A DNA stretch of 23,669 nucleotides, from positions 1-23,669 of the forward strand of contig CAWKAR010000005.1 of the NCBI GenBank assembly GCA_963847625.1, written 5' to 3'. The notes beneath the pieces were generated by a model. It was given only the letters and a program-made list of their open reading frames with translations, was not told the DNA's origin and ran no database searches. Positions 5,789-23,437 of this stretch are shown here, piece after piece. The translations under genes and the position numbers were made by a program. This DNA comes from a candidate division FCPU426 bacterium. Its GTDB lineage: Bacteria; Oederibacteriota; Muellerivitia; Muellerivitales; Muellerivitaceae. Each line of letters opens with the position of its first letter. Within the stretch, counting starts at the first letter, position 1.

Positions 5789-5875
5789 GGAGGGTTAGTC
5801 CTAATTGGTAAGGCAGTGGACTTGAAATCCACCGGGGGAAACCCCTTGCAGGTTCGAGTCCTGCACCCTCCGCCA
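5789..5875 (+). tRNA. tRNA-Ser, anticodon UGA
   Basis: Acceptor stem GGAGGGT/ACCCTCC plus G-CCA; anticodon arm GTGGA-CT(TGA)AA-TCCAC; long variable arm GGGG-GAAA-CCCC; T arm GCAGG-TTCGAGT-CCTGC. Confidence 0.97.
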
Positions 5876-6000
5876 ATTAATGAAGGACGAGAACCTGGGG
5901 TTCATAGGGGCGCAGCCCTTATGGACTTGAAAGAGGGGTACACAGGGGGATTTTCCACTGTGAGCACGGAGTGCGGTTTGATGTCCTGCACCCTCCGCCA
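5876..6000 (+). repeat. tRNA-linked palindromic module 1, ending in an 18-bp copy of the tRNA-Ser(UGA) 3' end
   Basis: GTCCTGCACCCTCCGCCA occurs at 5858-5875 and 5983-6000; three internal hairpins; 5941-5978 matches 6245-6282 at 32/38. Confidence 0.85.
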
Positions 6001-6080
6001 AAATATTAATAATCGAAGGCTTTTTCCAGGCGACATCGGTTCAATAGGTCCGTCGCCGGGTAATCAAATTTTAAACTTGT

Positions 6081-6172
6081 GGAGAGGTGGCCGAGCGGCT
6101 TAAGGCGACGGTTTGCTAAACCGTTGGAGGGGTAATACCCTCTCGAGGGTTCGAATCCCTCCCTCTCCGCCA
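6081..6172 (+). tRNA. tRNA-Ser, anticodon GCU
   Basis: Acceptor stem GGAGAGG/CCTCTCC plus G-CCA; anticodon arm ACGGT-TT(GCT)AA-ACCGT; long variable arm; T arm GAGGG-TTCGAAT-CCCTC. Confidence 0.97.
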
Positions 6173-6303
6173 ATAATAGTTCAATAAAAAAGATTCGAAC
6201 CCGGGGGGGCGCGGGGGTGGGCCCCCGCGATTGGATTGGGGTCACACAGGGGGAACTTCCCCTGTGAGCGCGAAGCGCGGTTCGAATCCCTCCCTCTCCG
6301 CCA
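6173..6303 (+). repeat. tRNA-linked palindromic module 2, ending in a 25-bp copy of the tRNA-Ser(GCU) 3' end
   Basis: GGTTCGAATCCCTCCCTCTCCGCCA occurs at 6148-6172 and 6279-6303; GATTCGAACC (6192-6201) is the inverted T-loop; three internal hairpins. Confidence 0.88.
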
Positions 6304-10148: not shown

Positions 10149-11810
10149 TTACTTTTTGGCGGCTTTTTCTCTTTTTGACCTGATTTCCCTCGCCTGATAC
10201 TCCAGGTATTCTGCGTACCGGCCCTTGTAATCGGTATAGGTACCGTCCATTCTCAGTTCCAGGATGCGGTTGGCCACCTTATCAATCAGGTTCTGGTCAT
10301 GGGAGGAAAAAATCACGGTTCCCGTAAACTCGTCCATGGCCTTGCTCAAGGATTCGATGGATTCCAAGTCCATATGGTTGGTGGGTTCATCCAGCATCAG
10401 CATATTGCCTCCCTCCAACATGAGCCGGGCCAACACCATTCGCTGGCATTCCCCGCCGGACAGGACTTTCACGCTTTTTTCCTGTTCCTCCCCGGAAAAA
10501 AGCATCCGTCCCAGCATCGCCCGGATCACCTGGCCCTCCTCCAGGGGGGCGAACTGACGAAGCCAATCCAGGGCGGTTAAATCCTGGGTCAGCTCATCTT
10601 TCACATCCTGGGGCATGCTGGAAAGCCTCACGGTACTCCCCCATACCACCTGACCCTCGTTAATCTTCAGGCCCCATTGGGACAACGTCGATCCTTCGGC
10701 CTGGTAGCCCCCCAGGAGGCACTTGATCAGGGTGGTTTTCCCCACTCCATTGGGCCCGATGATGGCGATCTTGTCCCCGCTCCCCGCGATGAAGCTGACC
10801 TTTTTCAAGACCTTCAGGTTTCCATAGGACTTGCTGATGCTCTTGACGTTCAGGATATCCTTCCCGCTGCCCTGCTTTTCCTTGAAATAAAGCCTGGGAT
10901 ACTGGCGGGAAGAGGGGATGATTTCCTCCAGTTCGATCTTCTCCAGCAAGCGGGCCCGGCTGGAGGCCTGGGCGCTCTTGGAGGCGTTCGCGGAAAACCG
11001 GGAGATGAACACCTTGAGCTCGGCGATGTGCTTTTCCTTGCGCGCGTTCTCGGAAAGCTTTTGGTCCAGGGCCTGCTGGGAGGCCATGACGAAAAAGTCG
11101 TAATCGCCCGTGTAAATCGTGACCTTTTGCCGGTCGACGTCGGCGATATGGGTGCAAACATGGTTCAGGAAGTGCCTGTCGTGGGAAATGACGATGATGG
11201 TTCCGTCATAGGCGTTCAAATAGTCTTCCAACCAATCGATGGTGCGGATGTCCAGGTGGTTGGTGGGCTCGTCCAAGAGCAGAACGTCCGGTTTGGCGTA
11301 AAGCACTTGGGCCAGCAGAACCCTCAATTTCCATCCCCCGGTGAGTTGTTTCATCTTCCATGGATGTTTGGCGGTCTCGATCCCCAGGCCCTCCAATAAC
11401 TCCCCGGCCGCCGCGGTCACGGCATACCCGTCCATTTCCCCGAAGTGGGCTTCCAGTTCCGCGGCCCGCAGGCCCTCCTCGTGGGTCATGTGAGGTTTGG
11501 CGTAAAGAGCGTCCTTCTCGCGCTGGACCTTCCAAAGGTCTTCCCGGCCCATCAGCACCGTGTCCAGGACCGTAAACTCCTCAAAAGCGTATTGGTCCTG
11601 CTTCAGGAGGCCCACCCGGACCCCCCGGTCCACCGCCACTTCACCCTCGTCGGGTTTGATTTGCCCGGCCAAAATCCTGAGAAAAGTGGATTTCCCCGCG
11701 CCATTGGCACCGATCAGGCCATAACAATAACCAGGATTGAATTTGACCGTGACACTGTCAAACAGGGTCTTTTTCCCGAATCGAAGGGTAAGGTCTCTTG
11801 TGGAAATCAT
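10149..11810 (-). CDS. ABC-F family ribosome-associated ATPase (YbiT-like)
   Basis: Two ABC domains (GANGAGKST...LLLDEPTNHLD; GPNGVGKTT...LSGGE...LDEPTNHMD), linker FISRFSANASKSAQASSR and no TM segments; ATG at 11810 preferred. Confidence 0.95.
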   Translation of the reverse strand: MISTRDLTLRFGKKTLFDSVTVKFNPGYCYGLIGANGAGKSTFLRILAGQIKPDEGEVAVDRGVRVGLLKQDQYAFEEFTVLDTVLMGREDLWKVQREKDALYAKPHMTHEEGLRAAELEAHFGEMDGYAVTAAAGELLEGLGIETAKHPWKMKQLTGGWKLRVLLAQVLYAKPDVLLLDEPTNHLDIRTIDWLEDYLNAYDGTIIVISHDRHFLNHVCTHIADVDRQKVTIYTGDYDFFVMASQQALDQKLSENARKEKHIAELKVFISRFSANASKSAQASSRARLLEKIELEEIIPSSRQYPRLYFKEKQGSGKDILNVKSISKSYGNLKVLKKVSFIAGSGDKIAIIGPNGVGKTTLIKCLLGGYQAEGSTLSQWGLKINEGQVVWGSTVRLSSMPQDVKDELTQDLTALDWLRQFAPLEEGQVIRAMLGRMLFSGEEQEKSVKVLSGGECQRMVLARLMLEGGNMLMLDEPTNHMDLESIESLSKAMDEFTGTVIFSSHDQNLIDKVANRILELRMDGTYTDYKGRYAEYLEYQAREIRSKREKAAKK

Positions 11811-23016: not shown

Positions 23017-23196
23017 GTTGAAAAACCCATCAACGATGGGATTTTTCAACGGCACCTTTAAGGTAACCCCCGATTTGACGGCGCTCATAGGGAAAATCCC
23101 CTATGTACAACGAACTCATAAGGAAGAGCCCCTATGTACCCACGAAACCGAAAAGCCCGCAAAACCAAGGCCTGTGGAAATCTTTGGGGTCGAGAC
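23017..23196. repeat. Dispersed repeat copy B with a preceding TGAAAAA/TTTTTCA hairpin and a ~100-bp internal insert
   Basis: Hairpin 23017-23050; arms at 23060-23070 and 23171-23196; the insert has two tandem CTCATARGRARRRYCCCTATGTAC-like units starting at 23084 and 23115. Confidence 0.75.
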
Positions 23197-23206
23197 TGTT
23201 GCAAGG

Positions 23207-23437
23207 TCACTTTTTGTCCCCGGAACTCTGTTCCAGGGACTTATTCAACAGTCTCAGGTTGTTGCTGAGCCGGTAAACCGCGCCGGCGCCATTGCCTTCC
23301 CTGACCAACCGCCCCTCGGCGATTAACTTGTTCAGGTTACGGAGCACGGTTCGCCTTGGACTTTCCAAGGCATCCACCATAGCGCCGGTTTTGACTTGGC
23401 CGTTCCGCTGGACATGGTCCAATAGCCTCAAAACCAA
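23207..23437 (-). CDS. Small winged-helix protein or C-terminal remnant of a larger gene
   Basis: RRTVLRNLNKLIAEGRLVREGNGAGAVYRL resembles the wHTH tails of Fic/RecG-like proteins; TTG start without a strong RBS; in-frame TGA 15 codons upstream. Confidence 0.55.
   Translation of the reverse strand: MVLRLLDHVQRNGQVKTGAMVDALESPRRTVLRNLNKLIAEGRLVREGNGAGAVYRLSNNLRLLNKSLEQSSGDKK

Follow-up and report, generated by a model that had tools for sequence, protein, structure and literature searches.

The window, a 23,669-nt stretch of DNA from a candidate division FCPU426 bacterium, contains two genuine tRNA-Ser genes (5789-5875 and 6081-6172), each followed by a hairpin-rich, protein-less module of approximately 125 bases. 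Direct comparison revealed that the end of tRNA-Ser(UGA) is duplicated at the far end of the first module (5858-5875 and 5983-6000, 18/18 identical) and that the end of tRNA-Ser(GCU) is duplicated at the far end of the second (6148-6172 and 6279-6303, 25/25 identical). Each module also carries a backwards copy of the T-arm of its own host: the segment 5881-5895 agrees with the reverse-complemented host T-arm at 12 of 15 positions, and the segment 6192-6201 is a perfect complement (11/11 when extended to 6202). The two modules match each other at 32/38 positions (5941-5978 versus 6245-6282). These values had been reported in a first-pass annotation of the window, and every figure holds. No integrase or transposase was seen by the modules; the flanking ORFs scanned encode one dehydrogenase, one STAS protein, two DUF proteins, and a further protein without a family. 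At the Rfam gathering score, the only matches were the two tRNAs. The order of parts is host end, A/T-rich spacer or terminator-like hairpin, backwards arm, variable hairpin P1, GGGGT motif, hairpin P2, mini-hairpin P3, junction, and second host end. In the window, the parts are located as follows:

5789-5875, + strand: tRNA-Ser(UGA), intact host; duplicated over its last 18 bases (5858-5875)
5884-5896, + strand: module 1 backwards arm, which complements the T-arm of its host except for GA in place of TC at the loop centre; pairing via two G.A pairs is predicted
5900-5926, + strand: module 1 hairpin P1 with a C-GCA-G loop, a subtype common to the orthologous copies in genomes G001 and G002
5935-5962, + strand: module 1 conserved unpaired GGGGTA, then hairpin P2 (5941-5962)
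5964-5974, + strand: module 1 mini-hairpin P3 with a C-GGA-G loop
5975-5982, + strand: module 1 junction, a T-loop mimic into which one base is added after position 58
5983-6000, + strand: module 1 tail, which repeats positions 59-76 of tRNA-Ser(UGA), as seen in the direct comparison and in the alignment with the empty allele
6081-6172, + strand: tRNA-Ser(GCU), intact host
6173-6191, + strand: module 2 A/T-rich spacer
6192-6202, + strand: module 2 backwards arm, perfect complement of host positions 6147-6157
6210-6229, + strand: module 2 hairpin P1
6238-6266, + strand: module 2 conserved GGGGT, then hairpin P2 (6245-6266)
6268-6278, + strand: module 2 mini-hairpin P3 with a C-GAA-G loop, the commonest form of the family
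6279-6303, + strand: module 2 junction (6279-6285, with the same sequence as the host T-loop) and tail (6286-6303, positions 59-76)

Other stretches of the window also contain hairpins. Between module 1 and tRNA-Ser(GCU), a short hairpin stretch (6014-6062) bears a poorly aligned likeness to part of a longer element of genomes G007, G021, G042, and G006, in which a second copy of the 5′ half of tRNA-Ser(GCU) lies upstream of the gene. On the negative strand, the region 23031-23217 holds a cousin of the module that keeps GGGT and P2, here twice in tandem, and has no tRNA and a different right end; further cousins with GGGT and P2, equally devoid of a tRNA and with a different right end, lie on contigs 26, 27, 40, 3, and 57 of the same genome. 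The stretch 5923-5933 matches the anticodon arm of the host over 11 bases, but the orthologous copies lack this match, and it was dropped.

The two modules belong to a repeat family. An iterated profile of the P2-P3 core yielded 31 matches at an E value of <0.01 in the source genome, amounting to approximately 30 copies, and a module lies directly behind 10 of its 44 tRNA/tmRNA genes as well as behind one truncated tRNA-Arg. A backwards T-arm matching at 10/11 positions or better was found within 110 bases behind 10/44 tRNA/tmRNA genes compared with 0.35 % of 2,000 random windows, which, together with the 31 core matches, argues against chance. A model built from 17 copies produced matches in 29 of the 30 other genomes of the family. 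Beyond the family, under stricter filters, there were only marginal matches (E values of 3 × 10−4 to 1 × 10−3) in 5/68 other genomes of the phylum. A strict pattern retrieved 3 loci from a species-genome collection, one of them titled Candidatus Firestonebacteria, and 11 loci from metagenomes; viral contigs searched with three patterns, as well as phages and plasmids, contained no carrier of the module. In public sequencing runs, shares were at most 0.13, the contigs covered the tRNAs only and not the module, and no run contained the stretch.

For further analysis, a copy set was assembled from 29 loci and 60 chosen regions, out of approximately 214 family matches, plus the source genome. It comprises 135 distinct copies, 81 of them full length, and 66/81 of the latter are located behind a tRNA or tmRNA gene. 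Tandem arrays of two or three modules occur; their polarity is weak, with the first module exceeding the last in 9 of 14 arrays, equality in 2, and the reverse in 3. A three-module tRNA-Asn array is present twice in near-identical form, on contigs 4 (10345-10739) and 12 (50-442) of the source genome, one of them at a contig start, and represents either an assembly duplicate or a real duplication. A second module type was also observed, consisting of a terminator-like hairpin, a backwards T-arm that folds with the following GGTTC, other hairpins, and a worn tail. It was seen behind tRNA-Ser(CGA) on contig 24 of the source genome (L199:304-460) and at loci L158-L161, L164, L174, L176, and L178. 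This type is nearer in look to E. coli rtT and occupies the same sites as the module studied here.

The hairpins of the module are supported by covariation across copies. In P2, 908 cells are unchanged, 80 are compensatory, 27 are G-T, 11 are A-C, and 22 are other; P3 has 24 compensatory cells, and a GA-flanked variant of it is frequent. Single modules fold modestly better than shuffled sequences on the + strand (z of −1.9 to −3.7), and this strand folds better in 75/81 copies under DNA rules and in 78/81 under RNA rules. P3 closes a C(GAA)G loop in 56/116 copies, and GCGAAGC is an exceptionally stable DNA mini-hairpin according to excerpts of PMC13037366. The commonest P1 loops, GGGA (30 of 116) and GGAA (8 of 116), are GNRA loops, which are as fit for RNA as for DNA. 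A strong hairpin with a T-rich tail precedes 19/57 copies, and some hairpin of −8 kcal/mol or better precedes 30/57; both window copies lack an upstream terminator. At the other end of the module, the distal T-loop is identical to that of the host in 3 of 57 copies and different in 54, with 38 copies carrying an extra base after A58, while the acceptor strand of the family tails is kept at 86-96 % per base. The combination of an extra base after A58 and a kept acceptor strand places the junction at 58/59 and sets the usual duplication at 18 bases. Module 2 of the window, with its 25-base repeat, is one of the three T-loop exceptions and thus unusual.

The backwards arm is tailored to its host. 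Among 57 first copies representing 27 host types (1 of 58 was left out for poor register), the arm matches the variable loop base of its own host at a rate of 0.93 versus 0.39 for other hosts, and T-stem base 51 at 0.77 versus 0.26. Permutation of the 27 host types gave a P value of 2 × 10−4, which is overstated because kin copies are not independent. Base 51 lies outside the duplication, on its 5′ side; for hosts with a non-G base at this position (n = 33), it was matched by the arm in 22 copies and by the distal copy in none by script and in one by eye. Furthermore, in 52/57 copies, the arm is predicted to pair more stably with the tRNA of its host than with the tail of its module (mean of −15.0 versus −10.2 kcal/mol under DNA rules), and its pairing with its own tail is no better than with foreign tRNAs; the signal was weak when arm and own tail were compared without gaps (8.4 versus 7.9 and 8.0 versus 7.5 of 12). 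The better fit to the intact target than to the own tail argues for the arm as a target guide more than as the terminal stem of the module, the role that the first-pass annotation had assigned to it. In hosts with a CGAG loop, the TC-to-GA change is present in 24/25 arms. Its predicted outcome is a pair of G.A pairs side by side, which is a stable motif. An origin of this change as a four-base micro-inversion was considered and rejected, since the E. coli Tyr and Ser repeats, which have a different loop, show the same GA.

Of the 26 loci fetched for the orthologous Ser-Ser site, 24 were readable. The module follows Ser(UGA) in 4/24 genomes and Ser(GCU) in 7/24, and the remaining genomes carry the second module type with the same kind of arm (approximately 9 and 4, by eye), a different hairpin repeat, or no repeat at all. 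Empty sites in relatives, which the first-pass annotation had proposed to look for, thus exist, and the site in genome G018 is precisely that of its congener G002 without the module. Core similarity was 0.739 for the same host tRNA across genomes versus 0.675 between genomes (P = 0.001) and 0.669 within a genome (P = 0.71). As the cores cluster by host tRNA and not by genome, there is no sign of a recent burst. This clustering also fits an old insertion followed by vertical descent and loss between the direct repeats. Such a loss can explain some of the empty sites, and the empty alleles give no direction (gain versus loss).

The module is not tRNA-specific. Beyond tRNA 3′ ends, the core was found at one protein-gene 3′ end as well as at terminators, tRNA 5′ ends, and acceptor-stem sites, so that one core of approximately 85 bases is used with a protein gene, with terminators, and with at least 19 types of tRNA. 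Hence, the proposal of a non-autonomous, host-tailored miniature element is upheld by the copies, arrays, empty alleles, and lack of an own mobilising gene, while the restriction to tRNAs that went with it has to be abandoned; likewise, the expectation that copies sit only behind tRNA or tmRNA genes describes most full-length copies and leaves out these other targets. The protein target is the 3′ end of a pyridine-nucleotide disulphide oxidoreductase gene (lpdA-like/dihydrolipoamide-dehydrogenase-like). By eye, this site is filled in 8/30 family loci and empty in the source genome. Tails at tRNA and lpdA-like targets mostly start with RTCC.

At seven lpdA-like loci, the 42-base gene-end pairs differ by 44 silent versus 12 non-silent changes, while local duplication followed by neutral decay would give an expected silent share of 0.40 (P = 3 × 10−9). 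The frameshifted G023 locus (3 versus 11) was left out of this count; with G023 included, the numbers are 47 versus 23. Because the differences are mostly silent, the two ends were working alleles of different lineages, and the presence of two working alleles suggests an integration that brought a replacement end. In 7/8 cases, the intact end is a better fit to the arm than the distal end is, sometimes over bases 5′ of the junction. In comparison with empty congeners, the proximal gene end is the closer one in 5/7 comparisons, which does not settle which of the two copies would be foreign.

We read the module as a new family of the tRNA-linked repeat (TLR) class and estimate a probability of roughly 0.6 that it is a non-autonomous small integrating element that acts as folded single-stranded DNA. 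Such an element would carry its own copy of the end of its target gene and would insert at one fixed point, which in tRNAs would lie between T-loop positions 58 and 59, leaving behind an intact gene and pushing the other end downstream. Its working form would be the folded single strand, with the P2-P3 core as a putative handle for an enzyme supplied in trans. The arm would base-pair with the target across the insertion point and could in this way set the specificity, as the guide bases of peel-and-paste elements do. New targets would be gained rarely, by a change of the arm, and lineages may then keep one target gene. For the enzyme, our bet would be a strand-transfer activity for folded single strands (HUH-type or a tyrosine recombinase) and not plain homologous recombination.

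A rather unlikely alternative is that the module is a structured RNA kept by the host, like E. coli RtT or RrB, which is cotranscribed with the tRNA, cut at the repeated CCA end, and acts as a small RNA or through pairing of its arm with the T-arm. The E. coli TLRs RrA/B/F are indeed transcribed and processed and bind Hfq and CsrA, as stated in excerpts of PMC8144298. The better fold of the + strand under RNA rules, the frequent GNRA loops in P1, the missing upstream terminators of the window copies, and the persistence of copies across genera would all suit an RNA. However, there is no CCA in copies that sit at the protein-gene end, at a terminator, or at the 5′ end of a tRNA, between 19 and 30 of 57 copies lie behind terminator-like hairpins, and most orthologous sites are empty. 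The C(GAA)G triloop is a DNA motif (PMC13037366, excerpts), and foreign gene ends would go unexplained. With many copies lacking a CCA end or following a terminator-like hairpin, a CCA-ended decoy RNA, which had been suggested as an alternative in the first-pass annotation, does not account for the family as a general function.

No mobilising gene lies within the module, and among 455 downstream ORFs, there was neither an ORF family common to modules across targets nor a long copy with cargo, contrary to the idea that longer copies carrying a recombinase gene might be found. In the source genome, GIY-YIG, Y1 transposase, tyrosine integrase, reverse transcriptase, IS110, and resolvase genes show no link to the modules. 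The same genome (94 % complete) has no integron integrase over the cut-off and no Mob relaxase. The core was carried by 0/30 Y1-transposase loci, and Y1 matches are absent from 9/31 family genomes, some of which are module-rich and 98-99 % complete.

The modules might instead be passengers of small GIY-YIG (Ssn-like) nucleases that nick at the empty site or at the hairpin, whereupon repair copies the filled allele (homing). In relatives, small GIY-YIG ORFs do lie right behind tRNA-Ser, tRNA-Gln, and tmRNA genes, three of them between two tRNA-Ser ends; one module (L045) is followed by a GIY-YIG ORF, and a broken one in the source genome ends in a tRNA-Asn tail. Moreover, the hairpin repeats that belong to Ssn nucleases are the sites where these enzymes cut single-stranded DNA (PMC11893778, excerpts). 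Nevertheless, a GIY-YIG gene is located within 1 kb of just 1/135 modules, and the SRM consensus pattern was found in 0/135. The 20 GIY-YIG regions had partly been chosen for proximity to tRNA-Ser, and among the best-scoring 30 GIY-YIG loci, only 1 has a tRNA in range. A search with the broken GIY-YIG of the source genome retrieved no autonomous copy. An old distal tail copied by homing should also decay at random, unlike the silent bias seen at the lpdA-like loci. Altogether, we regard homing by such nucleases as improbable.

Several GIY-YIG loci have features of their own. In genomes G011, G016, and G010 (L046:1504-2040, L047, and L048), a GIY-YIG ORF of approximately 90 codons lies between an intact tRNA-Ser(GGA) and a dead copy of it, in which the anticodon arm is swapped for another hairpin and the D-arm encodes the last codons of the ORF; this arrangement looks like a homing-nuclease element in a tRNA gene. 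Among loci L049-L053, L057, L058, L060, and L062, a clade of GIY-YIG ORFs of approximately 80 residues is found behind tRNA-Ser(CGA/GGA), and other GIY-YIG ORFs are located behind tmRNA and tRNA-Gln, preceded by a hairpin repeat whose end resembles that of a tRNA; this repeat also follows the module in G001. The broken ORF of the source genome (70 codons, contig 3, negative strand, L197:1040-1330) has an arm-like stretch upstream and a GA-rich hairpin with a tRNA-Asn tail downstream; this hairpin and tail occur six times in the genome, two of them with a module behind. The GIY-YIG locus L016 (G008) is A/T-rich, with a composition unlike the rest of the family, and may be a misplaced contig.

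It is also quite unlikely that the modules are cargo-less remains (attL-attR scars) of tRNA-integrating islands moved as double-stranded DNA by tyrosine or serine integrases. A regenerated gene end with a terminator is typical of such islands, tandem arrays occur, and the source genome has 18 tyrosine-integrase and 5 resolvase matches. Yet integrases are site-bound, whereas one core serves all of the targets listed above; no long cargo-bearing copy was found among the downstream ORFs, and no resolvase of the genome adjoins a module. In addition, the att sites of islands need neither a backwards target copy nor strand-specific hairpins. Finally, a local replication accident, in which template switching at a hairpin produced a direct-inverted-direct duplication devoid of mobility, is highly improbable, as its order of parts resembles tandem inversion duplications but would not be expected to place a core of approximately 85 bases at unrelated sites with a fixed junction and silent-biased gene-end pairs.

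The proposed small integrating element, with a folded single strand as its working form, can be set against systems that share some of its properties. A MITE would have fixed terminal inverted repeats in all copies, and the arms of the module vary with the target; integron cassettes (attC) go with an integron integrase, which the genome search did not recover. The Rfam family Clostridiales-2 (RF02937) aligns weakly but at full length over P1, the linker, GGGT, and P2 of G001 copies (28.7 and 24 bits), although the best of these scores falls short of the cut-off of 58.6 bits, and weak matches also occur in 9/14 control genomes. Ssn/SRM systems resemble the family in their single-strand hairpins, their GA-flanked mini-hairpins, and the GIY-YIG genes at the same tRNA ends in relatives; they differ in the SRM pattern and in the repeats that flank a GIY-YIG gene, given the single module with such a gene within 1 kb. 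The main text of the Ssn paper, in the excerpts of PMC11893778 available, contains no mention of tRNA.

The IS200/IS605 and REP/RAYT elements (HUH Y1) likewise have single-strand hairpins, a conserved unpaired motif at the hairpin foot, precise empty sites, and, plausibly in common with the module, a target choice by base pairing. In IS200/IS605 peel-and-paste elements, guide bases set the target specificity. In contrast to the module, these elements carry no copy of the target gene end, and none of the 30 Y1 loci contained the core; their mechanism is covered in part in PMC11893778 (excerpts).

Elements that regenerate the 3′ end of their target include tRNA islands, CIMEs, and e14 in icd. 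Such elements share with the module the intact gene with a displaced end, a frequent terminator after the restored end, tandem accretion, and exact empty sites, and a direct repeat of the target end with an exact empty site was indeed found here. Unlike them, the module spans approximately 110-150 bases, has no cargo and no cognate integrase in itself or in a longer copy, serves many unrelated targets with one core, and carries a backwards target copy and strand-specific hairpins.

The closest resemblance in layout is to the E. coli TLRs (RtT/rttR, RF00391; serX, lys, and rrA/B/F). TLRs are defined by an 18- to 19-base copy of the end of the upstream tRNA or rRNA; according to excerpts of PMC8144298, 22 of them are present in E. 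coli K-12, and they have been known since 1978 and described as without known function. A mobilome study observed raised coverage at tyrT-rttR, interpreted in its excerpted text as RNA/DNA hybrids and not circles (10.1101/2024.07.17.603846). We compared 12 genes of E. coli K-12 read directly, three of which are without a repeat. The serX, tyrT, and tyrV repeats contain the backwards T-arm of their own tRNA with the same TC-to-GA change (17-18/22), and the lysQ repeat contains a backwards arm with a perfect loop (16/22); only an arm remnant is left in four lys repeats, and there is none in rrB. Shortly before the tail, which begins at T-loop 58/59, the E. coli tRNA repeats have a GCGAAGC-type mini-hairpin. 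The serX and lysQ copies are preceded by a terminator-like hairpin. In loci L213, L215, and L066 of E. coli K-12, the T-loop junction, the tail start, and the terminal mini-hairpin are common to the ser, lys, and tyr repeats.

The module family and the E. coli TLRs are thus alike in their location behind a tRNA gene, their presence in one to three copies, the backwards T-arm with the TC-to-GA change, the final GCGAAGC mini-hairpin, and the 18-base tail that equals the host end. They are unlike in their middle hairpins and have no sequence match: the RtT covariance model (RF00391, 45-bit cut-off) gave 0 matches in the source genome, and the module profile gave no real match to the E. coli loci. 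The sequences therefore answer to a described repeat family in layout only. By the TLR definition, full-length copies lie behind tRNA genes in the proportion given above, with exceptions at the other targets, the last 18-19 bases repeat the host 3′ end, and arrays of two or three fall within the one to five copies per locus of TLRs. On these sequence features, the module would be classed as a TLR of a new sequence family distinct from RtT. Protein-gene targets and foreign gene ends are features of the module family on which the TLR literature, as far as excerpts of PMC8144298 go, is silent. In a search confined to open-access literature, we found no description of a backwards arm or of mobility of TLRs; excerpts of the Geobacter/Pelobacter repeat papers (PMC2700814, PMC3543383, and PMC2996986) and of PMC9897764 and PMC3184786 contain nothing on the layout of the module.

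The family places the TLR layout in an unrelated candidate-phylum lineage, along with signs of mobility unseen in the E. coli copies, namely exact empty sites, numerous targets, and paired gene ends derived from different alleles. If mobile, it would offer an origin for the long-unexplained E. coli tRNA-linked repeats, and as both shared features, the backwards arm and the terminal mini-hairpin, are open to mutation in E. coli K-12, the origin of TLRs is testable there. More tentatively, and with appreciable doubt, TLRs from E. coli RtT to the modules described here might form one class of minimal mobile DNA, in which a DNA guide within a folded strand would programme site-specific insertion that preserves the gene, and in which a rewrite of approximately 12 bases would retarget an element from a tRNA to a protein gene. 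If the arm is such a guide, the enzyme that acts on these elements would be a compact DNA-programmed insertion tool that spares essential genes.
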